Assembly: GCA_028687915.1 (NCBI GenBank) | Contig: JAQTZF010000001.1 | Location: 802,634 to 866,633, forward strand | From: Candidatus Daviesbacteria bacterium | Lineage (GTDB): Bacteria; Patescibacteriota; Microgenomatia; Daviesbacterales; UBA10151 | DNA length: 64,000 nucleotides | Direction of reading: 5' to 3' | In this document: piece by piece, positions 1,473 to 56,889 of the stretch | Numbering within the stretch: position 1 is the stretch's first letter | Layout: each line of letters begins with the position of its first letter | Program-made: the position numbers and the translations under genes | The notes under the pieces: model-generated | What the model saw: the letters and a program-made list of their open reading frames with translations, nothing else | What the model was told of the DNA's origin: nothing | Databases searched by the model: none

Positions 1473-1544
1473 GTCATCCTGAGGAACGAAGTGACGAAGG
1501 ATCTATTCTATTAACGAGATTCTTCGCTTATCGCTCAGAATGAC
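1473..1544. repeat. Copy A of a ~70-bp imperfect palindromic repeat (nested stems GTCATYCTGAG/CTCAGRATGAC and GAAGRATC/GATYCTTC)
   Basis: Reverse complement nearly identical to 54793-54860 except in the central loop; sits between convergent genes. Confidence 0.65.
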
Positions 1545-2674: not shown

Positions 2675-5600
2675 ATGTTAACATCTGCCGAAACCGGAAT
2701 AGATACATCTGCTGAGGCTGGAGCAAAACCAGAAATTACACAAGAAAAAGTTTTAAAAGATTTCAGATATGCAAAAGAAAAGTACAAAAGAGAAGTTGGA
2801 AATAAACCTAAAGCAGAATTAACCGCAGATGAAATATTTGATTTAAATGCTTTTAATGGTGCATTTGAAACAAATGAGCACCGCATTGGTGCAAATTTTG
2901 AAAAAAACAGATTTACTTACACAAACAAAATTACCAATCCTAATGGTGGACCTGATATTGAACAAGAAGAAGGTGTGCCCATAGAAGGAATGCTAAACTT
3001 CCTGGAAAAAAAGCTAAGTATATCAAAAAGTAAAGCAGAGAGGGACAAAATTGAAGAAGTATTAAAAACGTTAAAAAATCCCGATGTTTCAAAAACCTAT
3101 GAAGAGGCTCATGAGAACCAAATAATCGATATCCAGCCTGGTGAAACAGATGATCCTATTATGTTTGCCAGAAAAAGGCAGGAAGCTTTATTTGCTTCAA
3201 AAGACCACCGGGCAACGGGCAATATGCTTGAAAATTACAATGCAGGATTAGCTACCCTTAAAAGACGTAGAGAGTTGATAATTCCACCTAAAGTTGCAGC
3301 TACAGTGCCTGCAACAGGCACTGGATCCACCACTGCCCCAATTGCTGCACCACCAGTTACTACTGCAGGCCCAGAAGGAACCAGTATTATAGAAGCAGCT
3401 GAAGAATCTGAAGATGATTTAGCAGATACAGAAGAGGATACAGCAGCTGTAGAAGATATAAAACCAGCAGTAGCAGAAGGCACTGGAATTCCCGGGGACA
3501 CAATATTGCCTGAAACTCTAGAAACAGCTGAGGAGGATTCTGAAGAAGAAAATGCTCCTGTAACGTCAGAAGGTAATTTAGAGCCGGAGATATCAACAGA
3601 GCGAGGCACAAACACAACAGCTCAAACCCGAGGAAGATACGAATTTGGTGTTATCAGGGATGATGATGTAATTGATAAAAATGCCAGCTTACAAGCCAGA
3701 AAAGATTTCCACGAAAGAATTAGCAAGGGAAGATGGTTTGAATTCTGGAGATGGCCGGAAAAAATCGCCTTAAGGCTTAGTGAAGGTGGAATAGAAAATA
3801 TTCAGCAGGAAAAGCTTAGAAACGCCTGTATTGCAAATGGAGTTTCATTTTTAGATATAAAACAAATAAAAAGTGCTATAACTGAGGCAGACAGGATTCA
3901 ATCTAATGAACGACAAGAATCCCTCTTGGAAAGATTTGCAGCAGGAAGAATTGTTAAAAGAGAAGATGATAAAAAACCAATAATCGAAGAAAAAGTATTA
4001 TTGGCAGAAGATTCTCCTCTTAGGGCAGCTTTGTTAAGCGACATTATTAAGCCTGTGGTAGATGGCGAGATTACTGGTTCGCGCACTGAACAACAAAAGC
4101 AGATTCAGGAGAAATTAGCTGCAGTAATTAAAAAAAATCTCAATGATCCAAAAGTAAAAGAAATCTTTGGAGCAGAAGCCAGTGATTTTGGTTATGTTGC
4201 TGAATATTTTGCCACAGACCTTCTTGAAAAAAGCCTGGCAGTCAAAGAACAAATGGAGTTTCATAAAGAATCTCTGGAACAAATATCAGCTTATATAGAT
4301 ATCCATATTGGAATTGCCAGAGATCAAAGCAATACAGATACCAGAAACACTGTTGATAGGGCTGTAGCATGGGCTAGAAGCAGACAAAATGATCGAATGT
4401 TTACTAAGGGAGTACAGGAAGTAGTAGGGAATAGGGGATGGATTTTAAATCCTGCTGTAGTGGGTATAGCTACCAGCTTAGCAACCCATGGTTTATTAAG
4501 CAGTGTCGGTTTTGGAGGAAGAGTAGCTGGAATAGCAGCACCTATAGCTGGTGCTATGGGAGGTGCTGTTGTGGCTGGAGCCAGAAGGTATTTTGAAATC
4601 GGCGGTGACAGAAGAATGCAGGAAGCGGAACTTTCCATGGGAGAAGTACTTCCGGAAAAACGCCATGCCACAGACCGTATCGGAAAATGGATGGAACGAG
4701 CTATGGGTGGATACCGCAGAGAAGACTTGCTTCAATATAGATATGATTCTGTTAAGACAAGTGACCTTATTAATGGCAGCGGGGAAATTAATAATATATT
4801 TGACACAGATAGCACTAATCCAAAGAGAACGCTTAAGAGCGTTGACCAGTTGTTATCCCAACCTTTGGATATTCCAGCTGGAATTGATGATACTACCAAG
4901 GAAATAAGGGAATCTAATAGAAAAGCTGTTGCCGAAAGAATGGAAGAAATTCGTCTTAGAATTAACAGAGGTAAAAGACAAAAAGTTGATTTACTCACAT
5001 TCTCTGACAAAACTCAGGTTAACCAGGAGCTTAATGCTTTATATGATGCTGCAGATAAATTAGAACAGGCATTAACAGCTAGTGATGCAGATGTGGCAGC
5101 ATTAAAGTTTTTTGCTGACACCGCACTAAATGATGCCTTTGATAGAGATAAAAAACTAAAAGACAATGGTTTTAGAGGCTATAGAGCAAGACAAGCTGCT
5201 GGTGCAGCAGTTTTTGGAGGAACAGTAGGACTTGCAGGAGCACTAACCACAGGAGTCTTTTTACAACATGGAGCAGCAGAAATAGCCAGGCATAACCCAG
5301 GTATTTCTAAAGTACCTATTATTGGTGGGTTATTTCAACCAGGACAAACAGCGCTTGAAAAAACTGCACATAATATAGGTACAGTTTTAGGACATCCAGA
5401 AATAGGCACAGGACCAGCCAGTGTTGATACTTTCAAAGATATGTTTGATCACGGAGGCAGGGTAAATATTGGCAATACCACTCTTGAAGCAAACCCAGAC
5501 CACACTGTTACTTTTTTTGATCGAAACACAAACCAGCCACTTTCAAACATACCAAAAACATATTTGGAAGCTGATGGTAAATTAATTGTCCCTGGAAATA

Positions 5601-9000: not shown

Positions 9001-9689
9001 CAAGGGTAATTAATAGTATCCAAAGGATTGCCCCTCAACTAAATCAAGAGAAAATACTAGAATTTATTGCAAGAGCCCACACTATAAACCCAAGCAGTAT
9101 TCTTAAAACCACCAGTTTATTAAGTGAAGAGTTAGCCATAGAAGAATTTATCCGCGAGTGGGAGACTGAATCAACTGCAGGTAAAACGAACGATCCGCTT
9201 GAAGTATGGCTAAACAATAAGCTTACTGCAACTGAACCAACACCTGTTGAAAACACAAGTACACCAGCTGCTTTTGAATTTACAGAGGAACAAAAAGCTC
9301 AGTTTGAAGATCAAAAAGAAAAAATTGCTGCAACTTTAGAAACTAATGGAATAATGGATGATAATAATTTAGGGGAGCTTTACCAAATTTATAATTTAAT
9401 TACAGATCAATGGTCTTTGATTGATATAGAACCTGCTGAAGATTTAAAAGAGCTTGCTACTTCCATTTCAGATAGAATCAAAGGAACTGATGATAAATTT
9501 AAGTTAGCTGGTCTTTTGGCTAACCTCTTTTCCAATCCTGATGTTCAAACCAAATATCCTGACTTAAACGATTACTTTAATAATAGATCCATTGATACTG
9601 CGGATCAAAGAGCTATTGTACGTAGACAGTTCTTTGAATTTATGTACTCCTTAAAAGCTGTTAATGATCTTGTCTCACCTCAGCCTTAA
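6045..9689 (+). CDS. Giant repeat-rich protein (1214 aa) with an embedded GT9 (heptosyltransferase-like) glycosyltransferase domain (about nt 6807-7725); start uncertain, may be a frameshifted continuation of the previous ORF
   Basis: GT9 motifs VVLGGAIGDAVIST, EGSRPGKRYGMQNW and LTNDSGLAHIAGALKNGPSVVMLF; Pro/Thr-rich C-terminal repeats. Confidence 0.6.
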   Translation: MHREFWWVQDGKELQFYHHLLPGETVDLDMSKMISQMTPAGGVNWDNTIDSQYSHLMNDITTNPDGTHNYKNFEFLITPNDAADNARDIIKITVGADGHAQIPKGVDLHQFFDTKSGDVKQLARFIEVAHVEADGSRTIISTSVGKGIDNILVEGPGTHTLNAIPPLAKELIPPSFEAPPIIPIPFAPRHPLEEIGEEEIGGGYYPEGVFPRGTRIADVIRRGRGIRRGHSPYELSERDITIDHEEGMAALAELRQSFENTDGVYVVLGGAIGDAVISTAYIKGIQQALNQSGKSIPLTIMVSQDQGDLYDAWGQGNIKIVKVARNSGLAEATSAITASSLKNPLIFDFEHARAANPTIEIEEVNNQKITTVANLLIPAVHLYNNGSDSEKRYSKFIEELLSLPENSVDPQIAKPTIELPSNKDQLYENLANRCGIDTNNPNQISIIVEGSRPGKRYGMQNWATVITEIQKQYPNYQFNVLFNKQDRRVGYTEDDIRTTLTNAGVINSCHLVDGTLMELAVLLEKQKLTLTNDSGLAHIAGALKNGPSVVMLFLPKDSSVNMWASSKKHIPIALSKEEEQNLSNVDINDENEDRKLMNKIPPERIIQKALEVLNSQPTAISTPAPRRSTGTGAPPTIDNTFSPGTPAYNAMENHSEAERLLPVWRNLLQVKTTGDPTQLEETIKTIEAKWPDLAASTTPQTTPASTQPVVTTPPIAITDEELAATTPENPNINPFRRTQLAAWNSFENHREAERWLPVLRNILQEGAERDPDQLEKDIKTIEAKWPDLAITILPAPTVTASGGPAQSKMSIWGREIPRTFQPDSSGSLPRSMGGNRYDLDMNGNLYIDERPASEKEVEDFNKLHPHPRGLQARVPILAPPTAEELNAPAPTKPGGTLLVNLPRPAPAPTTPPIAITDEELTAATPPEQPPVATSPLPQPGPRQRVLLTNMPRPTVIPPTPAPTTEPNESVTSANNEETLNISEEQSRVINSIQRIAPQLNQEKILEFIARAHTINPSSILKTTSLLSEELAIEEFIREWETESTAGKTNDPLEVWLNNKLTATEPTPVENTSTPAAFEFTEEQKAQFEDQKEKIAATLETNGIMDDNNLGELYQIYNLITDQWSLIDIEPAEDLKELATSISDRIKGTDDKFKLAGLLANLFSNPDVQTKYPDLNDYFNNRSIDTADQRAIVRRQFFEFMYSLKAVNDLVSPQP

Positions 9690-9694
9690 TCAAC

Positions 9695-11668
9695 ATGGAA
9701 GAAAAAGGTGCTGAACCGGCTATGATATCCAGAAGGCAGTTTTTTAATCTGGTAAAAGATAAAGCCCCTGCTGTTATTACTGCTCCTTTTGTATTGGACA
9801 ATATTTTAACAAACCAAACAACAAACCCTCCAGAAATAAACTCTAAGGAAAGTGAAGATTTTTTAGAAAAATCTACCTCACAATTGTCTAACAGCATATT
9901 GTCTTTGAGCCCTGATAAAAAACAATCCAGTTCAACAACAACTCTACTTGCATCAGCAGCTTTTCTAAGTTCTAAGAAAGATAGCCAACAAGAAAAACTT
10001 ACACCAAGTGACCCTTTTTTTGGGAACACACTGGAATTACTTCTACCGGAAATTGAAGATCCTTTTTTTGGAGGCGGTCTGGAACTACTTTTACCAGACT
10101 TGGAAGAGACAAAAGGCAAAAAAGAGGGAGTGTTAAATAAATTGTGGACCAGAAGACAAACTATTGGCGCATTAGGAGCTGGACTAATAACAGCAACTGC
10201 CTTATCCAAACTCACAATTCCTACAGTATCAGAATATATGAAGAAAGTGTTTAATACGGTTGAGGCAGAAGCAGTTGAATTTGATCCAAATAAGATCTTC
10301 CCTCCAGTCCCAACCCCTATCCCAGGTAAAAAAGAATCAAAACCTATCCAAAAACCCAATCCAGAAAAACCTAAACCTTTACCAACACCAGAAAAACCAC
10401 CCAAAGAAATTGTTGGTAATAAAAATTTAGCAGAATTTTTTCTTGGTGACCTTTTAGAAAAATTTAAAACTAGAAGACAGGAGAGAGTAAAAAATCCTGA
10501 CGCAGCCGAACGAATTAATAAAGAATTACTTGGATCAGATAGTATTTTCACGGTTTATATGGGAATAGATGAAACTCGTGACAGACCAAAAGTCTTTAGT
10601 TCTGTTGGATGGGGCAGATCAGACATTGTTCTTTTAACCGCTTTTAATATTCATACTTTTCAAACAAAAGTTGTTTCTATACCAAGGGATTTATTTGCAC
10701 CAGAACTCGCAAAATACTTTCCTAAAGATCCTAAAAATCCCAATGCAGCTCCACCTAAAGTTAATTCAATGACAACCGTTGAGTATGCAAAATCAATTGG
10801 AAATATTAAAGAAAGCGTAAATGAGTATGAATTAATTAAAAAAATCATTGAATCAGCAACCGGATGCCCGATTGATATGATGGTAAAAACTAATATCGAT
10901 TTTATGCAGGGATCATGGGATAGAAAAATACCAGGAATTTTTGACAGACTCACACCAAATGGAATTGATGTATTAATACCAGAAAGTTTTACAGATAAAG
11001 AATACCCAACACCTGGGGAAGGAGATGAAACTATCTTTTTTGAAAAAGGATGGCAAACACTTAGTACAGGAAAATACCCAAAAAGAGCTGGTAATCCAGG
11101 AAAAGGAGGTTATACAAATCCTGATACAGTTTCCAGAAACATTACTGCATATGCTAGATCAAGAAAAGGGGACTCTGATTTTGCCAGGTCAGACAGACAA
11201 AGACAGATACTTTCTGCTTCACTTAAGGCAATTATGCCTGACGTTCTAAAAGATTTAACTGCTGGGTCTTCAAAGTCATTGGATACAATTGTCTCTGCCC
11301 TTGAAGGACAAAAACAGGCTGCAAATCTCTTTTTTGACGTTGATATTATCGAGATTGTTAAAACACTAAACGCAAATATTTTAAAACTAAGACAAACTGC
11401 AAACGGCACAGCTGCACTAGGTGTGTTGATTGCAAATACTGCAGGTGTTGTAAGTAAAATCTCGAAAGATGACAAAAACTCGTTTGTCTCATATGGGCCC
11501 ACTTTTACTGATGGACTAGATAAAGTAGACGAAAAAGATCCGAATTTTTGGTTTGCTGAATCAAAGCCTGCTGGTTCTTCAACTAGCTTACCGCCCACTC
11601 AACTAGGTAATTATTTATCTTATTGGGCACCCTTAAGAAATAAAGTTATGAGTATAATGAAAAACTGA
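9695..11668 (+). CDS. LCP (LytR-CpsA-Psr) family glycopolymer phosphotransferase with Tat-like N-terminal motif
   Basis: LCP signature GIDETRDRPKVFSSVGWGRSDIVLLTAFN…VVSIPRDL; SRRQFF and TRRQTIGALGAGL motifs. Confidence 0.7.
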   Translation: MEEKGAEPAMISRRQFFNLVKDKAPAVITAPFVLDNILTNQTTNPPEINSKESEDFLEKSTSQLSNSILSLSPDKKQSSSTTTLLASAAFLSSKKDSQQEKLTPSDPFFGNTLELLLPEIEDPFFGGGLELLLPDLEETKGKKEGVLNKLWTRRQTIGALGAGLITATALSKLTIPTVSEYMKKVFNTVEAEAVEFDPNKIFPPVPTPIPGKKESKPIQKPNPEKPKPLPTPEKPPKEIVGNKNLAEFFLGDLLEKFKTRRQERVKNPDAAERINKELLGSDSIFTVYMGIDETRDRPKVFSSVGWGRSDIVLLTAFNIHTFQTKVVSIPRDLFAPELAKYFPKDPKNPNAAPPKVNSMTTVEYAKSIGNIKESVNEYELIKKIIESATGCPIDMMVKTNIDFMQGSWDRKIPGIFDRLTPNGIDVLIPESFTDKEYPTPGEGDETIFFEKGWQTLSTGKYPKRAGNPGKGGYTNPDTVSRNITAYARSRKGDSDFARSDRQRQILSASLKAIMPDVLKDLTAGSSKSLDTIVSALEGQKQAANLFFDVDIIEIVKTLNANILKLRQTANGTAALGVLIANTAGVVSKISKDDKNSFVSYGPTFTDGLDKVDEKDPNFWFAESKPAGSSTSLPPTQLGNYLSYWAPLRNKVMSIMKN

Positions 11669-48761: not shown

Positions 48762-49685
48762 TTATTCCTTATTATTGCCGGAGTGAAACGACTTATGAAC
48801 ATCTTTTAAATGCTTATTGGTAACATGGGTATATATTTGGGTTGTAGCAATATTTGAATGACCTAGCATCTCCTGAACAGATCTGATATCAGCCCCATTA
48901 ATAAGCAAATCTGTAGCAAAACTGTGTCTTAATGTATGAGGAGTGGCTTTTACTAAAATACCAGTACCCTTAACATACTTTTCTACAATCCTTTCTATAG
49001 AGCGGGGAGTGAGCCTCATAGCTTCACCACCAGGAGTTATATCAACCTTACCCTGAAACCTAATAAACAGGGGAGAAAAATTATCTTTTCTATTTTTCAA
49101 ATATTGATCCAACCAATGAATAGCAGAATCAGATAAAAAAACCACTCTTTCTTTAGATCCTTTTCCCACCACGGAAAATTCAGATCTTTCTAAATTAATA
49201 GATTCACGATTTAAGGAAGCCAACTCTGCTACACGTAGTCCTGTTGAAAATAATGTTTCAAGCAAAGCTCTATCCCGAAGACCAGCAAGATCTGAGGTCT
49301 GGGGAGCCTCAAGCAGCTTTTTTAATGATTCATCATCCAGTATTTTAATAGGGGAGGCATCAGACTCACCTAACTCTATTTGTTCAGCAGAGAGTGATTC
49401 TATACCTTGTTTAGAAAGATAGCGTAAAAAAGCACGTAAAGCTATCATAAAATAATTTTGAGTAACTCTTTTTAAAGGTTCTTTAGTTTTGGGATCAAGC
49501 CAGCGGTTTAAAAATAAACGATATTTTCGAACAAGCGCCAGATTAATATCTGCAGGCTTAATATCCCCGGCATATTCGAGGAATCTTTTAAGATAGTGAT
49601 CGTAATTTTGTATTGTTTTTTGAGACGTATTACGTTCAATTTCTAAATATTCTAAAAAATCTGTTATTAAAGCGGAGAGCGTCAT
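48762..49685 (-). CDS. Tyrosine site-specific recombinase XerC/XerD family
   Basis: C-terminal catalytic HTLRHSFATDLL…LGHSNIATTQIYTHV. Confidence 0.8.
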   Translation of the reverse strand: MTLSALITDFLEYLEIERNTSQKTIQNYDHYLKRFLEYAGDIKPADINLALVRKYRLFLNRWLDPKTKEPLKRVTQNYFMIALRAFLRYLSKQGIESLSAEQIELGESDASPIKILDDESLKKLLEAPQTSDLAGLRDRALLETLFSTGLRVAELASLNRESINLERSEFSVVGKGSKERVVFLSDSAIHWLDQYLKNRKDNFSPLFIRFQGKVDITPGGEAMRLTPRSIERIVEKYVKGTGILVKATPHTLRHSFATDLLINGADIRSVQEMLGHSNIATTQIYTHVTNKHLKDVHKSFHSGNNKE

Positions 49686-49686
49686 G

Positions 49687-50382
49687 CTAACGTCTGGCTA
49701 GGCTAAAGAAACCTAGAAAAGTTAAAGAGCCCCCAATTCCGACCAATATTAAGGTAGGATTTACATCAGCTGTCCCAGGTAAAGGGGCCTGTGTTGGAGT
49801 CCATCTTGGTGGTTGAGTAATAGTAGCAGACCCAGTTGAAATAGGTCCGCCTTGTCCACAACTACCAGTTCCAATTACATAGTTACCATTTACAACCTGA
49901 TTTAAGGTTTCTACCATTGTAGTAATCTCAACCACATTTGTATCAGTGGTCTTACTTTTATCATTAGGATCAAAATCAAATTTAATCTGAGTGGCTCCAA
50001 CAGGAGCAGTTTCCAAAACCGTAAAATCAATAGTAGCAAATGTTCCTGCACCCTTAAAGAATGAGGTTGCAGAAGCTAAACCAGAGATAAGTATAGTACC
50101 TGTTAATGTATCAATACTATTTCCTGTATAATCCGGATAGATACTACCATTACTAATTTTATTAGCCACAAAACGGGTGGTATCATAATTAATAATCACA
50201 TCTGTACCAGCTGTTTCAAAAGTACTTGTATCTAAATTAACTGTTAATGAAAAATTACAATTTTTATTAAAAGTCCCGGTAGGAGGGGAGAGTGATAAGG
50301 TTGATCCGGCAGCAAAAGCTAAAGCAGGATTCATAAATATTAAGCTTAATGCACTTAAAAAAGAGATAAGTATTTTTTTCAT
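49687..50382 (-). CDS. Secreted cohesin-like domain protein with a C-terminal sortase-type sorting signal (LPGTA, hydrophobic stretch, RR)
   Basis: Signal peptide; cohesin-like beta-sandwich region; tripartite C-terminus PLPGTADVNPTLILVGIGGSLTFLGFFSLARR. Confidence 0.5.
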   Translation of the reverse strand: MKKILISFLSALSLIFMNPALAFAAGSTLSLSPPTGTFNKNCNFSLTVNLDTSTFETAGTDVIINYDTTRFVANKISNGSIYPDYTGNSIDTLTGTILISGLASATSFFKGAGTFATIDFTVLETAPVGATQIKFDFDPNDKSKTTDTNVVEITTMVETLNQVVNGNYVIGTGSCGQGGPISTGSATITQPPRWTPTQAPLPGTADVNPTLILVGIGGSLTFLGFFSLARR

Positions 50383-51008
50383 TGATTTATTTTAAGATCA
50401 AGATTTTTAACCTGTTCCAAAACATCAGCAGACTTTTTATTCTCTATAATATTACTGTCATTTGTTTTTCCTTTAGTGAATTCAATAAATACTTTAGCAG
50501 AGCCTGCAGCTTTTGCCTGAAATAAAATAGTACCAAATAAACCATTAGGAATAACTCCTGCTATATTATTTGTAATACCGGAAACTGTAATTACACCACT
50601 TTTTGATTCACTTTGATTAATGGGGTATTCATCATAAAGAGTACCCACAGTAACTGCACTTTTTGAAGAGGTAGGTGTAAGAGCTAATAAATTAGCATCA
50701 TAATGAATAATAATATCCGCCCCAGCTGTAGTTTTATCAGACTCAATGTTTATACCAACCGGTATCATTTCTCCAACCTTAAAATCAGTTTTAGGAACTG
50801 TTAAAGAAATAGTATTTAAGGCTTTAGTCTCTATTCCGGTTTTATTAGATTTAGGCTCAGACTGTTCAAATTGATCAGTTACCCTTAATGCCTGATAAGC
50901 CCAGGCACCCTGAATAGCAATCACAATTACCACAAAAATAATTACATAAAGTGGCTTAATATTACCAAGGAAGGTAGCTAATTTTGTTTTGATATTGGAC
51001 AGTTCCAT
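50379..51008 (-). CDS. Membrane-anchored cohesin-like domain protein
   Basis: N-terminal TM; cohesin-like region (…GADIIIHYDANLLAL…). Confidence 0.45.
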   Translation of the reverse strand: MELSNIKTKLATFLGNIKPLYVIIFVVIVIAIQGAWAYQALRVTDQFEQSEPKSNKTGIETKALNTISLTVPKTDFKVGEMIPVGINIESDKTTAGADIIIHYDANLLALTPTSSKSAVTVGTLYDEYPINQSESKSGVITVSGITNNIAGVIPNGLFGTILFQAKAAGSAKVFIEFTKGKTNDSNIIENKKSADVLEQVKNLDLKINQ

Positions 51009-51070
51009 TAATTTAAATCCTTACTATAATTGAACCACAAAGAGTTGTCTTCTGTCTAGTTTTATCATAC

Positions 51071-51316
51071 TTATGGTGCTGGTGGACCTAAAGGGGAGCG
51101 CAACTCAATAGTGAAGGTAGTACTGGTAGTAGTTCTTTTGTCAGGGCTAACACTATCTCCTGAAAAAGTAATTGGATCTGCTGCAGCCCTGGATTTAAAT
51201 AATTGCTGCTCACTAGCAAGCTTCACTCCAACCGGAATAACCAACAACATAATTCCAATAACCAGTAATGCAATAATATTTTTCTTATTCAATAAACCTT
51301 TATTTACTTCTTCCAT
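51071..51316 (-). CDS. 81-aa protein paralogous to the N-terminal anchor module of 53875-54567
   Basis: Shared motif KKNI…IPVGV-L…QLFK[SP][RK]AA…I-FSGD/SG. Confidence 0.35.
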   Translation of the reverse strand: MEEVNKGLLNKKNIIALLVIGIMLLVIPVGVKLASEQQLFKSRAAADPITFSGDSVSPDKRTTTSTTFTIELRSPLGPPAP

Positions 51317-53875
51317 TTATTCTCCTCCTTTATTGTAATTATTTTGTAAACAAGAGTAATCTACAGAATTAACCCGTGAGTCAGTATTTAAATCAGCAGT
51401 CCTGCTAACATCACTATTTAATGCCCACTCTCTAGACATTTCTCCTTTATCAAAAGCATTAACCTTATTATCAGGAGCAGCCACCGGATAAATATCTCCC
51501 ACATATAAAATTATATCACCCAAATTAGTAGTACCTTCTTCTGCTATAAACTCTACTTTTCTACTAACTGTTTTTGGTGCTTTAAGGCTTAAGACATACG
51601 TTTTTCCAATTTCTATACCAGGGGTAAAATCAACTGGTTTACCTTCTTTATCTATATTAATTTTCTTCTTGATAAGTGATTTAGCACCATCAACTTTTTC
51701 TTTAATTTCAACAGCCACATCTGTTGCTGATAAGTCACCAGATTGTGCTAAACAGGTAGTTTTCTCAGTAAAATCAACAGTGGTTAAATCCAATGAACAA
51801 TAGCCATTTATCACTGTACCATCATCAGTAGTTAATACTATCTGATGCCTGCCTCCGGTTAACCTGTCATTTAGGCTGGATTTAATCTCATACCTTGTAT
51901 CTTTATTAGAAGATACTGGAGTAGCGGATAGAGTAGCAGATGAAGTTGAACTTGTATCTTTTCCTAAAGAAACCCAGGAACTAATATTAGCCTGCTTGCC
52001 TTCAACTTTAATATTTCCGGTACCCTGATCATCGTGTAAGCCAAAGTTTATTCCCCTAACAGTTACTAAAGTTCCGGTACCAATAGGACTAAAGGTACAA
52101 TTAGCTGAAGTTATCCTTGGTTCTCCACCAATATACTTAATACTCTTTGAGGTTACTGTGCTTTTATTATCTTTATTATCTTTAAACTGACAAAACAAAG
52201 TTAAATTTCCACCTGGAACAACATTATAAGTAAATTCTTTTGTGAATGTGATAGGAGCACCAGATCCATCTCTATTTCTATATGGCTCCCATTGTGGGGC
52301 GCTGCTACCAGTATCATCTTTATCAAAGCTTTGTTCAGAACACCTATATTCTGTGGTATAAGTTGGAACTGGTGGAGGAGTTGGGGTTACATAGGTAATC
52401 TGGCGGGAGAAAACCTGACTGGTTGTTTCATCTGGCTTTTTAAATTGAACACAAACATTATAAACCTTACCAACAACAGGATTTGCTAATTGATAATTAT
52501 TAATTGATAGGGCATCTGTATTACCAGCAGCCGCATAAGATTCCCATGTAGGGGAAGCATCGCCTGCATTAAAACAGGCATCACCAACTGTGTAACGATA
52601 TTGATAAGTCCTGTCTGTAGGAGCGGCCGTAACGGTTGGTGGTGGTGTTGATGTAGTACTACTGGTTATATCAACAACTTTCCAGCCAACATTTTGACCA
52701 CCACAACTAAAATCTGATATTGTTCCACAATCAACGCATTGGCTTGCAGGTGAACCTAAAGAAGCTGCTGGGCAAGTAGAAGCTCCATACCATTTACAAA
52801 AAGGATTGCCGGAACACCAAACTCTTGGTGCACCACCTATACCAAGTTTGTAGGCTTGGTATTCTGTAGAAGCAGTAGAAACAAAAGGATTAATATAATA
52901 CCTGCCAGTAGACCTGGGGGTCCATTTGGCTGTAAGTATATATCTGTTTTCACCTGTAGTAAAAGTTGACTGATTAAAGGTAAATCCTTTTACGCCAAAA
53001 TTACAATATTGCCTATTAACATTATCTATAGTTGCAGGACTACCTCCACTTGCAACACAATCTGGATTAGGAACATTGTTATTATGATCTTGATCTGCCC
53101 GAACCCAAAGAAGACTTGTTGATAATAGACCGCCCAGTACACTAGTATTAGCAGTTGAGGTAAAGGAGAGCTCTTGACCCACCACACCGCTACTAGGACC
53201 TTCAACAGAGGCGCTGATGGCAGGATTTGTTCCATCTGGATTTCTAGCAGGTGCTCCAGAAGCTATGGATTGTCTAGTAAACCAAACATGATTCCATCTA
53301 CAATTACCCCAGTCATCTGTAGATGATGTTGGTTTCCTAACAGCTTTAATTTCAATTGACTGATCATTAGAAGGTGTTGCAAAAGTTCCTTGCTGAATAG
53401 GTACGCCACATTCATTACCAAGATTATCAGTCACTTTATGAAACCATTTGGTTAACTTAAAATTAGGGTCATCAACATGAATAGAAACTCTTGTTGGTAC
53501 ACCATCTACTGTACCCAAAGGAATACTTATACGTTCAAAAGTATAAAAAGGTTCATCATGGACAAAAGTGCTACCTTTTCCAGAAGGGTCAGGGTTGCAG
53601 CCACTGGAAAATGAATCACCATCAGATCCTTGACTCCATGTCACTTTATAAGTTGGAGTACCTTGACAAGCAGGGCCACCACAAGAACCGCCAATTATTT
53701 TTCTCTGATTAGTACAGCTACCATAAAGTGATGGATTCTCATCTGTCACCTGACCAAGTAAAACAGCACCCTCTCGTGAGCCATTCCAAACAGCAGATGC
53801 TTTTTGGGCAGAAAAAATAAAAAAGACAACCAATATTAAACTAAATAAATATGTAAATACTTTAATTTTTTTCAT
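51317..53875 (-). CDS. Large secreted Cys-rich protein (852 aa), hypothetical surface protein
   Basis: Signal peptide; many Cys pairs; Ig/fibronectin-like repetitive beta-rich regions. Confidence 0.55.
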   Translation of the reverse strand: MKKIKVFTYLFSLILVVFFIFSAQKASAVWNGSREGAVLLGQVTDENPSLYGSCTNQRKIIGGSCGGPACQGTPTYKVTWSQGSDGDSFSSGCNPDPSGKGSTFVHDEPFYTFERISIPLGTVDGVPTRVSIHVDDPNFKLTKWFHKVTDNLGNECGVPIQQGTFATPSNDQSIEIKAVRKPTSSTDDWGNCRWNHVWFTRQSIASGAPARNPDGTNPAISASVEGPSSGVVGQELSFTSTANTSVLGGLLSTSLLWVRADQDHNNNVPNPDCVASGGSPATIDNVNRQYCNFGVKGFTFNQSTFTTGENRYILTAKWTPRSTGRYYINPFVSTASTEYQAYKLGIGGAPRVWCSGNPFCKWYGASTCPAASLGSPASQCVDCGTISDFSCGGQNVGWKVVDITSSTTSTPPPTVTAAPTDRTYQYRYTVGDACFNAGDASPTWESYAAAGNTDALSINNYQLANPVVGKVYNVCVQFKKPDETTSQVFSRQITYVTPTPPPVPTYTTEYRCSEQSFDKDDTGSSAPQWEPYRNRDGSGAPITFTKEFTYNVVPGGNLTLFCQFKDNKDNKSTVTSKSIKYIGGEPRITSANCTFSPIGTGTLVTVRGINFGLHDDQGTGNIKVEGKQANISSWVSLGKDTSSTSSATLSATPVSSNKDTRYEIKSSLNDRLTGGRHQIVLTTDDGTVINGYCSLDLTTVDFTEKTTCLAQSGDLSATDVAVEIKEKVDGAKSLIKKKINIDKEGKPVDFTPGIEIGKTYVLSLKAPKTVSRKVEFIAEEGTTNLGDIILYVGDIYPVAAPDNKVNAFDKGEMSREWALNSDVSRTADLNTDSRVNSVDYSCLQNNYNKGGE

Positions 53876-54567
53876 TAGTGTTGCGGTGGCATCTCCAGTC
53901 TATCATTTGGTCCACATCGTGGGTTTTGTGAAATAGTTGCAACCGGATTACCACTACAATAAACCATACCATTAAATGTCTGAGCATTAGCTACAATATA
54001 ATAACGTTGGTTATCATTTGGATATGCCCATGTACCTGTAGCAGTACAAGTACTAGCCCCAGCACAGTCATTATTAACACCTATTAAAGTCCAGGAGTTT
54101 GGATCTTTTAAATCTTTAGCTTGATTGGCTACATATACCCATGCTTTTCGCAGATTTACTCCTGTTGCAGTTGTAGTATATGTATTACCAGATACCGATA
54201 ATGAAGCAGAAAGACCCGGAGCTGGAGTAGAGGTTGGAACTGATGTAGTAGTAGGAGTTGGGCTAGCTGAAGGAGTTGGTGCTTGAGTTCCAGTTGGATT
54301 CCCGCCCGAGCCAGGAGCTCCATAAGGACCATATGGGGAATGAAAAGTTATATTTACCTTAGGATCAGTGGTTTTACATCCACTTGCAATGCAATCAAAT
54401 ACCCCAGATCCACTAATTTCTATTGTTTCTCCTGCTGCTTTTGGTTTAAAAAGTTGTGTTTGTTGAACTAAATAAACTCCAATCGGAATTGATAAGGCAA
54501 TAAGACCTAAAATAATAGCAGAAGTAATATTTTTTTTCGTCAGAAGATAATTTAATGAGTCATTCAT
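53875..54567 (-). CDS. N-terminally anchored secreted protein with a Pro/Thr-rich linker and a Cys-containing C-terminal domain
   Basis: Conserved N-terminal anchor motif shared with 51071-51316. Confidence 0.5.
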   Translation of the reverse strand: MNDSLNYLLTKKNITSAIILGLIALSIPIGVYLVQQTQLFKPKAAGETIEISGSGVFDCIASGCKTTDPKVNITFHSPYGPYGAPGSGGNPTGTQAPTPSASPTPTTTSVPTSTPAPGLSASLSVSGNTYTTTATGVNLRKAWVYVANQAKDLKDPNSWTLIGVNNDCAGASTCTATGTWAYPNDNQRYYIVANAQTFNGMVYCSGNPVATISQNPRCGPNDRLEMPPQH

Positions 54568-54792
54568 CTATAATAGGGCATTAAGATCTAGATTAGAGTA
54601 AAAGGGCAAGTAATGTCAAGCACAGGCAGTGAATCAACAGGTAAGGGAATCGGCAGATCAGCAAGATCAGTGTATCAGAGAAGACTTTATATTGTGCGAC
54701 AACGATTATATTCAGATAGATCAGATAGAACCGGAAAGATACCAGTTTAAACTAAAGAATATCTATTTAAAATCATAAAGATCAAAAAGATA

Positions 54793-54860
54793 CACACTAA
54801 ACATATATAAAATGTCATTCTGAGCATAAGCGAAGAATCAATACTTATGAGATCCTTCGT
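54793..54860. repeat. Copy B of the ~70-bp imperfect palindromic repeat (inverted relative to copy A)
   Basis: GTCATTCTGAGC…GAAGAATC…GATCCTTC…CCTCAGGATGAC; immediately downstream of the GIY-YIG gene. Confidence 0.65.
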
Positions 54861-54903
54861 CATTTTATTCCTCAGGATGACAAGAACGTATTTATTAGAA
54901 CAT

Positions 54904-55179
54904 TCAACAAAGATCATCCCAGTTAGGGTTTTTAGATTCAATAAGCTTTATTTTCTTAATTCTTAGCCATCCTTTAATGCGTTTTTCAGCAGAAATTGCA
55001 TCATTAACATCTGTAAATTCCTCATAATAAACAAGCTTATTTAAGTTGTATTTATGGGTAAAACTAGGAATTAGTTTTATTTTATGTTCATGAATTCTTC
55101 TTTGAATATTATTAGTAACTCCCGTATATAAAACATTATTTGATTTGTTAGTTAGTATATAAACGAAAAAACTTCTCAT
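54904..55179 (-). CDS. GIY-YIG family nuclease (UPF0213/YhbQ-like, 91 aa)
   Basis: FVYILTNKSNNVLYTGVTNNIQRRIHEH motif. Confidence 0.8.
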   Translation of the reverse strand: MRSFFVYILTNKSNNVLYTGVTNNIQRRIHEHKIKLIPSFTHKYNLNKLVYYEEFTDVNDAISAEKRIKGWLRIKKIKLIESKNPNWDDLC

Positions 55180-55200
55180 AAATTTATACTCTCAAACATA

Positions 55201-55350
55201 AACTACCAGTCAAGAGATGTTTCGCTTTGCTCAACATGACGCTTTAAGGCTCCGTAGCCATGAGGCGCTACAATGGCCCTAAACCGGCTGGAAAGCAGGG
55301 CAGTGCTATGGTAAGCTATCCATAGTTTAGGCTGTCCTAAAGCCCCAAGC
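55201..55350 (+). ncRNA. Candidate structured ncRNA (GC-rich island with nested helices and a GCU-GGAA-AGC GNRA hairpin); family and strand unassigned
   Basis: GC content about 55% against the AT-rich surroundings; helices CCTAAAC/GTTTAGG, CTATGG/CCATAG, GCCAT/ATGGC; no ORF. Confidence 0.25.
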
Positions 55351-55850
55351 TAATTATATAGAAAAACAATAAAAACTCAAAAACAGATAAGAAAATTATT
55401 GAAGAAAAGTAGCAAAATATGGCACAAATAAATACTACTTAAAAACCAATAAAAATTGATTCAGGTACAAATTTATATATTTTTACCTCTCCTCCGGCTA
55501 GCCTCCACGACGTCGTATAAGATACATTGTGCGACGTCGTAATTGGGAAGTAAACTTACTCACTACATTCAGAGTAGAGCTAAGGCTAAATTAGGAGTAG
55601 TTTGTGGCTTCTATTCTTCTTATTTAGCCTCATTTTATGTATCTAAAGCAACCCCTGCCTCTCCTCCGTACTAGTAACTACTTATCTTTTCACGCGTGAA
55701 AATAGATGTTAGCAGTCTTACAGTTACTGTAGTAAGTTTAGCTTCAAAAAGAGAGTACTCCACTCCTGAATATATTTGCTAAAAAATGTATATTTATTGA
55801 GGCTAAATTGAAGCTACAGAAAAAGTCCAGAGAACACTATACCCTATAGT

Positions 55851-55871
55851 TTAGCCACAAAGTTATCCACA
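55851..55871 (+). promoter_or_regulatory. Tandem DnaA-box-like 9-mers TTAGCCACA-aag-TTATCCACA (second is a perfect consensus) next to an AT-rich tract
   Basis: Direct match to TTATCCACA; lies within an 840-bp gene-free region. Confidence 0.3.
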
Positions 55872-56022
55872 ACTGTCCTCTATCTGTATCAGACTATATC
55901 AAATATACTATCCTATAGTTTTTTATATTCACGAAATCTTATTTTTGATCAAAGGTATCAAACTATATCATTTGAAGCTAAAAATACCACTTCCCCTCTT
56001 CTCCACCTTCTTGCTCTGAATT

Positions 56023-56889
56023 TTATCCTGTCCAGGAAGTTGTTAAAACTGCAATTAAGAATACCCCCAAACCCCAGCCCAAAAATTGCCAAACGTCTAC
56101 TCTATTCAACCTGTCTTTTAGGGTGTGTGTAGCAATACCAAGAGTCACATAAAGTCCGGTTGAAATTATGAGTGATGACATAGGTTTAGCAATTGGCCAA
56201 AATGATAAAGAGAGCGCCATCTCCCCCACAATTAAAGCTAAAATTGCAGACCATACTAAAATAAAGCTGTTTAAGCCTTCCATATCCAAAGACCAAATTA
56301 CCTGTAAAATCAATGGAAAACTTATTAAAAATACTGCTACCCCATTCCAGATAAAAAATAAGTTTAGAGAAAAGACTACATTAAACAACATATAAGCAGT
56401 TATTAATGTCAGAACAAATACAGTAGTAGATGCTACACGATATAAAGGTATAGTTCTAATAGATGCAACATTAAATACATTTTGAGAAAGCAACAAAGTA
56501 TAGAATACCAATCCAAAGGCAATAGCTACAGGAAATCTGGTTAGCCATCTTACTGGTAACAAAAAATAATAGCTTGCAACAGCCAGAGTGAATGCAGTTG
56601 GTAAGATCATCAATACTATTGCTTTAAGACTGTTTAGACCCTCCCACAGAGCCCAAATAGATAAAGCAAATGCTAAAAGTGCCAGCCCTGCAATAAAGCG
56701 GTAAGTTAGATAAAATGGAACTAATTGTGTGGACAATAATCCAAAAGATAAAACAATAGAAACAATAATTATCTTATGGCGTTTACCCAAAGATAATCTT
56801 TCATGGCTTAAAGCAATAAAAACCTTAATTATGTAATCACTTACTCTAAAAATAAAATTCATTTCGCGACTAATTTTAGAACATGACAA
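56023..56889 (-). CDS. Polytopic membrane protein, hypothetical (start probably at a downstream Met)
   Basis: About 8 TM helices. Confidence 0.5.
   Translation of the reverse strand: MSCSKISREMNFIFRVSDYIIKVFIALSHERLSLGKRHKIIIVSIVLSFGLLSTQLVPFYLTYRFIAGLALLAFALSIWALWEGLNSLKAIVLMILPTAFTLAVASYYFLLPVRWLTRFPVAIAFGLVFYTLLLSQNVFNVASIRTIPLYRVASTTVFVLTLITAYMLFNVVFSLNLFFIWNGVAVFLISFPLILQVIWSLDMEGLNSFILVWSAILALIVGEMALSLSFWPIAKPMSSLIISTGLYVTLGIATHTLKDRLNRVDVWQFLGWGLGVFLIAVLTTSWTG

Follow-up and report, generated by a model that had tools for sequence, protein, structure and literature searches.

On the evidence of its homologues, the GC-rich block between the DUF5656 and GIY-YIG genes is a non-coding element, present in single copy and specific to the Candidatus Daviesbacteria lineage (Microgenomates, CPR). 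Comparison of the same sequences indicates that this island is conserved chiefly in its primary sequence, besides a single credible inverted repeat or hairpin and faint indications of minus-strand pairing. We tentatively read it as a small RNA or leader that is specific to this lineage and encoded on the minus strand. Its degree of conservation is about that of the neighboring protein genes, and Rfam has no entry for it. In the uncultured CPR bacteria, hardly any regulatory RNAs or cis elements are known to us; nothing relevant was found in the literature on CPR, Daviesbacteria and non-coding RNA.

Conservation and setting of the island

The island and the features that border it are located as follows in the window, i.e., the whole stretch of 64,000 nt that was analyzed:

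54904-55179, minus strand: GIY-YIG gene, 91 aa (Pfam PF01541, E 2e-16), left border of the gap
55216-55240, minus strand: copy of the dispersed hairpin repeat GTCATnnTGAG...GAAnnATC, outside the conserved element
55254-55349, minus strand: conserved non-coding element of ~95 nt (the island proper), with low column entropy only in columns ~8-102 of alignment A6
55259-55289, minus strand: most conserved core, GCCGUUUUAGGGGCCUUCUAGGGCCUCGUG (window copy AGCCGGUUUAGGGCCAUUGUAGCGCCUCAUG), with columns C71, G72, T74, T75, T76, T85 and T94 of alignment A4 invariant
56023-56889, minus strand: DUF5656 gene, right border of the gap

The GC content was 0.51-0.54 at 55200-55349, as compared to 0.21-0.32 in the flanks (100-nt windows), and the 843-bp gap around it (55180-56022) contained no ORF beyond 43-44 aa. 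A sequence-only reading of the window had described the interval 55201-55350 as a GC-rich block without an ORF, lying in a gene-free region upstream of the GIY-YIG gene, and had proposed it as a candidate ncRNA. The GC-rich block, the ORF-free gap and the position upstream of the minus-strand GIY-YIG ORF were all borne out, and the block was also non-coding across the homologues. The interval itself proved to be composite: it comprises the conserved element at ~55254-55349 and, at 55216-55240, the hairpin repeat copy, which also lies within it.

The DUF5656 protein next to the gap was identical (100 %) to a protein of a Candidatus Daviesbacteria MAG, the one with PHQ59_04640. Homologues were collected by anchoring on RuvC, which yielded ten Daviesbacteria/Microgenomates loci, by searching with the degenerate core pattern SCGTTTTNRRGNNNTTNTAGNNNCTCGTG, which yielded 12 further metagenome loci (12/12 true homologues), and from the contexts of DUF5656 homologues. 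With nhmmer and covariance model R1, 27 distinct island homologues were obtained, each locus having a single copy, invariably on the gene strand (the minus strand of the window). The profile found exactly one island copy in each of the 37 sources that reached the island (36 fetched loci and the window). The covariance model scored 64-114 bits over the 27 distinct sequences and had one match only in the 64-kb window, at 55232-55356 on the minus strand with 101 bits. Viral contigs gave no match.

In the homologous loci of Ca. Daviesbacteria the island was located ~600-650 nt downstream of yebC-ruvC-DUF5656, measured from the DUF5656 stop. The gap that follows DUF5656 spanned ~650-1400 nt in all nine uncut loci (9/9) and contained at most small or inserted ORFs. 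Pairwise identity of the island was 60-72 % across loci whose ruvC DNA was 65-79 % identical, and both BLAST and MAFFT placed the end of conservation at window position ~55245. No reading frame was open in all sequences and the variability of the island had no 3-nt periodicity. A small ORF of 21 aa, open in loci L004 and L006, was rejected, as it is interrupted in L005, L016, the window and others and shows no codon periodicity. The conserved, largely unpaired stretches of the island are AGAUGA, a C-rich tract and GCCGUUUU, and the core carries an imperfect palindrome, GGGGCC-TTCTAG-GGCCTC.

The dispersed hairpin repeat, GTCATnnTGAG-(3-20)-GAAnnATC, occurred five times in the window, with 0 copies expected by chance: 1473-1503(+), 1518-1544(-), 54814-54839(+), 54851-54881(-) and 55216-55240(-). 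The last of these was missing at that position in the homologous loci; copies were also present 3' of the island in L002, L003 and L007. The copies often form intergenic inverted pairs and border the GIY-YIG gene on either side, and their short stem covaries (ATTCT/AGAAT, ATCCT/AGGAT, ATGTT/AACAT). The repeat may be a mobile or terminator-like element.

Known RNA families and the plus-strand fold

As the sequence-only reading had suggested for the block, Rfam 15 was searched with cmscan; at gathering score there was no match in the whole window, the island included, nor in ten related loci. At E<=10, nothing overlapped the island (54500-56100 of the window and 8 homologous loci). ARAGORN detected no tRNA or tmRNA in the window or in the ten related loci. 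The 6S, RNase P, tmRNA and tRNA identities were ruled out by these missing covariance-model and ARAGORN matches, and the same searches gave no match to SRP RNA (Rfam RF00169 and related), either at gathering score or at E<=10 in 54500-56100 and the 8 loci. The entire window (1-64000) contained zero tRNA, tmRNA or Rfam-recognized RNA.

The sequence-only reading had further folded the plus strand into nested helices and had found the GGAA loop and the AGCAGGGCAG tract loosely reminiscent of helix 8 of SRP RNA. Every complementary segment that it listed exists in the sequence:

55248-55251 / 55256-55259, plus strand: GGCT / AGCC
55257-55261 / 55273-55277, plus strand: GCCAT / ATGGC
55278-55284 / 55326-55332, plus strand: CCTAAAC / GTTTAGG
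55287-55296, plus strand: GCT-GGAA-AGC
55306-55311 / 55321-55326, plus strand: CTATGG / CCATAG

The nested fold was no better than chance and none of the listed helices was conserved. The minimum free energy of 55195-55355 was -46.7 kcal/mol on the plus strand (z -1.06, with 27 of 200 dinucleotide shuffles folding as well) and -50.0 kcal/mol on the minus strand (z -1.04, 30 of 200), and the mean z of the whole element over the 27 homologues was ~-0.8 on either strand. When the helices were placed on the plus-strand alignment of 27 sequences, 60.0 % of the cells were paired, vs. 59.2 % in shuffles, and their covariation score of 0.128, vs. 0.131 in shuffles, was reached by 309 of 500 shuffles. 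Only 53 % of the cells of GCU-GGAA-AGC and 48 % of those of CTATGG/CCATAG were paired across homologues, the latter helix was lost even in the closest relative (L001), and the middle segment that holds both had a z of ~0. The CCTAAAC/GTTTAGG helix was rejected: invariant A and U columns conserve its arms, yet U-to-A changes are uncompensated. The slight structural asymmetry that was found favors the minus strand over the plus strand as folded (G.U vs. A.C 26:9 and 28:5 in hairpins P5 and P4, described below). A plausible single-sequence fold, with a GNRA loop and nested helices, can be wholly unsupported by comparison.

A highly structured plus-strand housekeeping RNA, related to helix 8 of SRP RNA or to 6S, RNase P or tmRNA, could draw on the window copy, in which GCU-GGAA-AGC and AGCAGGGCAG occur and for which a set of nested helices can be drawn. 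Its likeness to SRP RNA (Rfam Bacteria_small_SRP) consists of a GGAA loop on a 3-bp stem, plus an AGCAG string. Among the homologues, however, the loop, its stem and the AGCAG string are unconserved and the AGCAGGGCAG tract varies freely; in alignment A7 (plus strand), the sequences at the loop positions include GGAA, GCAA, GAAA, TTTT, GATT and CCCG. The long hairpin of SRP type that would pair the 5' and 3' ends was absent from RNAalifold and from the averaged pair probabilities on both strands. Against such an RNA there are also the missing Rfam and tmRNA matches, the unremarkable z of its fold and the loss of pairs upon reading the plus strand, which turns G.U into A.C mismatches in 26 of 135 P5 cells and 28 of 161 P4 cells. 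We regard a housekeeping RNA as highly improbable and, within the reach of sequence and structure models, the SRP, 6S, RNase P and tmRNA identities as refuted.

The block is non-coding, conserved and syntenic in 27 homologues, which keeps a candidate ncRNA tenable as a reading, while the drawn fold, the SRP motifs, the link to a known family and the strand were not supported. Among the outcomes that had been named as speaking against it, the lack of an Rfam hit and the lack of convincing covariation were both observed, but a lack of conservation was not.

Candidate minus-strand hairpins and putative transcription signals

A minus-strand model of three hairpins (P1+P5+P4) was drawn by eye from these homologues. 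Together with the promoter-like site in front of it, it is made up of the following features, given in the direction of the minus strand:

55353-55380, minus strand: putative sigma-70-like promoter TTGAGT-16-TATAAT (10/12 consensus positions), directly upstream of P1
55326-55349, minus strand: P1, a recurrent 5' hairpin or inverted repeat (UUGGGGCU...AGCCUAA in the window; UUUAGAUUG/CAAUCUAAA and other variants in homologues)
55262-55279, minus strand: P5, a small hairpin GGGGC/GCCUC with loop YUUSUAGR, 82 % of cells paired, one mismatch in the window copy
55248-55259, minus strand: P4, a 3' hairpin GGCU-ACGG-AGCC whose sequence varies among genomes, 62-64 % of cells paired (fixed columns)

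P1 was the sole helix in the averaged pair probabilities (0.25-0.35), and its segment had mean z-scores, relative to shuffles, of -1.82 (minus strand) and -1.55 (plus strand) over the 27 sequences. Of its nine pairs, six vary on both sides, and 10-16 of the 27 sequences leave the inner pairs open (fixed columns). At pair 11-28, A or G stands opposite an invariant U (A-U 17, G.U 8). Since G.U and A.C combinations show no strand asymmetry (17:22), P1 could equally well be a DNA inverted repeat. P5 showed a G.U vs. A.C ratio of 26:9, favoring the minus strand. Its pair 80-95 was G.U in 20 and A-U in 7 of the 27 sequences and never unpaired, and a single C-G flip occurred, in L025. In P4, four of six pairs change on both sides and the G.U vs. 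A.C ratio was 28:5. The core and 3' segment had a z of -0.8 (27 sequences).

RNAalifold returned two to three pairs on the alignment of 10 sequences and 0 on that of 27, with no consensus structure on either strand. The P1+P5+P4 model had 71-72 % of its cells paired, vs. ~70 % in shuffles, and 47-51 of 500 shuffles reached this value. It beat slid controls, which paired at most 50 % of cells and which are biased toward a model derived from the same sequences. An unbiased scan of all column pairs found no stacked covarying pairs. The structured covariance model (R2) scored ~14.5 bits higher than the sequence-only model (R3) on all 14 of 14 held-out sequences, a gap that equals the difference between their information targets (0.59 vs. 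0.464 bits × 125 positions). A further helix, P3 (CCCY/RGGG around GCCGUUUU), was rejected with 61 % of cells paired and was not preferred over P5; its register slips because its 5' arm is a C/U tract.

Across the 27 loci, the best match to TATAAT peaked 4 nt upstream of P1, with a mean of 3.15/6 vs. ~2.2-2.6 at most offsets (maximum elsewhere 2.96). A match of at least 4/6 was present in 37 % of the loci only; the -10 signal is modest and, on an AT-rich background, weak. An intrinsic terminator, i.e., a hairpin followed by a U-tract, was missing in most loci: most have a 3' hairpin and very few, e.g., L025, a U-tract.

We tentatively infer that the island itself is transcribed. Transcription would proceed on the minus strand, in the same direction as yebC-ruvC-DUF5656, from the putative promoter at ~55380-55353. 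The product would be an RNA of ~100-110 nt, which could serve on its own as a small RNA or belong to the downstream sequence as its conserved 5' leader. The RNA would act through its conserved, largely unpaired sequence (AGAUGA, the C-rich tract and GCCGUUUU), by base-pairing or protein binding, and not through an elaborate fold. A GC-rich block within an AT-rich genome is typical of RNA genes, and tRNA and tmRNA genes are landing places for selfish genes in other bacteria. A minus-strand RNA is favored because the island is GC-rich in AT-rich DNA, has a promoter-like site and a 5' hairpin, shows a minus-only wobble pattern in its two 3' hairpins and, by analogy, behaves as an insertion hotspot. 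Counting against an RNA are the 0-3 pairs of RNAalifold, the whole-element z of ~-0.8 that lacks a strand preference, the pairing of the P1+P5+P4 model close to that of shuffles, the absence of stacked covarying pairs, the lack of strand asymmetry in P1, the missing terminator in most loci and the weak -10 signal.

The Xer-linked neighborhood and competing readings

In gene orientation, the gap contains a DnaA-box-like site, a palindrome, a dif-like core, an AT-rich spacer of constant length and the island; a recombinase gene lies farther downstream:

55687-55702: perfect 16-bp palindrome TTTTCACGCGTGAAAA, present in most loci and unique in the window
55508-55541, minus strand: dif-like Xer core ACGTCGCACAA-TGTATC-TTATACGACGT, ~250 nt upstream of the island core
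48762-49685, minus strand: Xer-like tyrosine recombinase gene (Pfam Phage_int_SAM_1 + Phage_integrase) that closes the variable region

The dif-like element has the layout of an Xer/dif core site, with two ~11-bp inverted arms around a 6-bp center. When compared with E. coli dif (sequence as printed in PMC3025954), the window copy matched at 17/28 positions and at 15/18 of the inner part, and its arms were symmetric at 9/11; across loci the cores ranged over 14-19/28, 13-16/18 and 7-10/11, respectively. The full palindromic core was present in 18 of the 27 distinct loci and most others had the half-type site TTGTCGNACAAT instead; among the 27, neither was found in L012 and L034. The half-site TTGTCGNACAAT also recurs beside promoters, including that of the recombinase gene. 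A copy of the left arm only, TTGTCGCACAATAT, was observed at 54689-54702(-), upstream of a 230-aa gene, and in L008 and L009 TTGTCGCACAATAT abuts the -35 of the Xer gene promoter. The spacing between the dif-like core and the island core was 241-255 nt in the 15 loci measured, and the AT-rich DNA in between was unconserved.

The palindrome TTTTCACGCGTGAAAA was located at a constant 159-172 bp from the dif-like core, on the side away from the island. It resembles parS (TGTTNCACGTGAAACA) with two extra central bases; the window contained no canonical parS. Nearly all loci carried a DnaA-box-like site, TGTGGATAA, upstream of the island at a distance of 350-550 nt, and the window site at 55863-55871 was the only perfect box in 64 kb. 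It is the second of two adjacent DnaA-box-like sites in the window, TTAGCCACA and TTATCCACA, at 55851-55871(+). Direct repeats (TGATATAGTYTGATAC twice and AAACTATAGG twice) lie near these boxes. A replication origin was considered and rejected, with a single conserved DnaA box (two in the window) and no switch of skew or gene orientation; the GC skew in the window tracks gene orientation and shows no clean inversion. Three purine-rich tracts (GGAGGAGAGG on the minus strand), at 55486-55496 and 55658-55668 (plus strand CCTCTCCTCCG) and at ~55994-56010, are located after the dif-like core, the palindrome and the DUF5656 stop at conserved positions, and no conserved ORF follows them. Long-range pairing between the purine tract upstream (GGAGGAGAGG) and the pyrimidine tract of the island was rejected, at -18.0 kcal/mol for cognate vs. 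-18.4 kcal/mol for non-cognate combinations.

Synteny is lost once the 3' edge of the island is reached, and the BLAST alignment between the window and its closest relative, L001, is interrupted at 55249-54702. The slot after the island is occupied by the GIY-YIG gene in the window only, this gene being missing from all other loci, and by a 23S_rRNA_IVP family gene in L001 (9268-9618(-)) and L004 (9337-9960(-)). L027, which is the same contig region as L004, has its 23S_rRNA_IVP gene at 4781-5098(-). These small genes look selfish. Between the island and the Xer gene, a cluster at 49687-54567(-) encodes proteins of secreted or surface type that carry cohesin, dockerin and TIG domains, and the gene content of this segment differs among related genomes.

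Every locus with sufficient flank (10/10) carried an orthologue of the Xer-like gene on the same strand, 1.0-5.5 kb downstream of the island. The proteins matched the XerC, XerD and XerA models over the full length, with scores under the equivalog cut-offs apart from L037, which was at the XerA cut-off. Six loci (L003 at 9333-10238, L012, L014, L020, L024 and L034) have a second Xer-like paralogue (XerB) 150-300 nt after the island. The two paralogues are ~30 % identical. The second gene comes with a TTGACA promoter and a core of its own, TGAGTATAA-TCAACC-TTATACTCA, and the -10 lies within the left arm of this core.

Instead of a free-standing sRNA, the island could be the conserved 5' leader, or a conserved regulatory region, of the downstream transcription unit, which ancestrally would have consisted of xer or surface-protein genes. 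Island and downstream genes are co-oriented in all loci, a promoter-like site precedes the island, no terminator follows it, and it starts with a hairpin; 5'-terminal hairpins are common in mRNAs. Further, XerB begins close to the island in its six loci and the GIY-YIG ORF of the window ~70 nt after it. The downstream gene differs by locus, though, being GIY-YIG, 23S_rRNA_IVP (on the opposite strand), XerB or a cohesin/dockerin protein, and no shared or functionally related gene, as expected of a riboswitch or cis-leader, follows the island across the homologous loci. The next gene on the same strand is ~70 to over 1000 nt away, a separate TTGACA / TATAAT-type promoter for XerB lies after the island and ahead of the XerB start codon, and the 230-aa gene of the window has its own TTGACA-16-TCTAAT. 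As the downstream gene varies and has promoters of its own, a leader is less likely, and we consider it unlikely overall.

A DNA-level reading would make the island a cis element of an Xer/dif-type locus that acts as dsDNA, by accessory or architectural binding or by fixing the boundary or attachment of the variable segment. This would fit its constant distance from the dif-like core although the DNA between is unconserved, the equally constant position of TTTTCACGCGTGAAAA on the other side of that core, and the Xer-like genes that flank the region, including the second paralogue with its own core. It would also fit the conservation of primary sequence with no convincing covariation, the imperfect palindrome within the core, the lack of strand asymmetry in P1 and a synteny break exactly at the 3' edge of the island. 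However, a GC-rich block of 95 nt is long for a protein-binding site, and no att-like second copy of the core was found in the 64 kb. The dif-like site is itself only a putative dif, given that the GC skew is uninformative and half-sites recur near promoters. The arms of P1 change jointly (GGGCU/AGCCC vs. GAUUG/CAAUC), whereas the third copy, which is TTTAGGG-like and lies within the core, does not vary; because of this, pairing fits better than recognition of half-sites, and G or A opposite an invariant U likewise fits RNA pairing. A DNA element is the main, though somewhat improbable, rival of the minus-strand RNA that we favor.

Whether RNA or DNA, the island may be the fixed landmark of an undescribed Xer-linked "platform" in Daviesbacteria of the CPR, composed of a dif-like core, a constant spacer, the island, an exchange hotspot for selfish and cohesin/dockerin genes and a closing Xer gene. 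The island would then serve as an attachment, expression or control element for cassettes, a proposal that we consider quite unlikely. Its position between the dif-like site and an Xer-closed variable region of surface-protein genes links the island to the plasticity of cell-surface genes in these episymbionts. The repeated landing of GIY-YIG, 23S_rRNA_IVP and Xer modules at this spot maybe makes its position the more interesting lead.

Several known systems invite comparison. The sites cer and psi are Xer sites with accessory sequences, and like them the island keeps a fixed distance from a core (here dif-like) and has Xer-like genes in its vicinity; in contrast to them, it has no recognizable accessory-protein sites. 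tRNA and tmRNA genes are known integration hotspots, which the 3' flank of the island would resemble by analogy, as the 3' edge of the island marks the onset of variable DNA and selfish genes; the island differs in being neither tRNA nor tmRNA and in lacking a duplicated att-like copy. For an RNA from the minus strand, a close parallel is offered by lineage-specific bacterial sRNAs with a conserved, unpaired seed, e.g., the C-rich RsaE/RoxS type of the Firmicutes. Named sRNAs showed no sequence relation to the island and no Rfam match, and the island differs from the RsaE/RoxS type in that it has no intrinsic terminator and its window copy no CCUCC tract. With this type, the island shares its length of ~100 nt, its intergenic, single-copy nature, a GC content raised above the flanks, conservation that lies more in sequence than in helices, small flanking hairpins and, in most of its homologues, a C-rich tract (CUCCCC).
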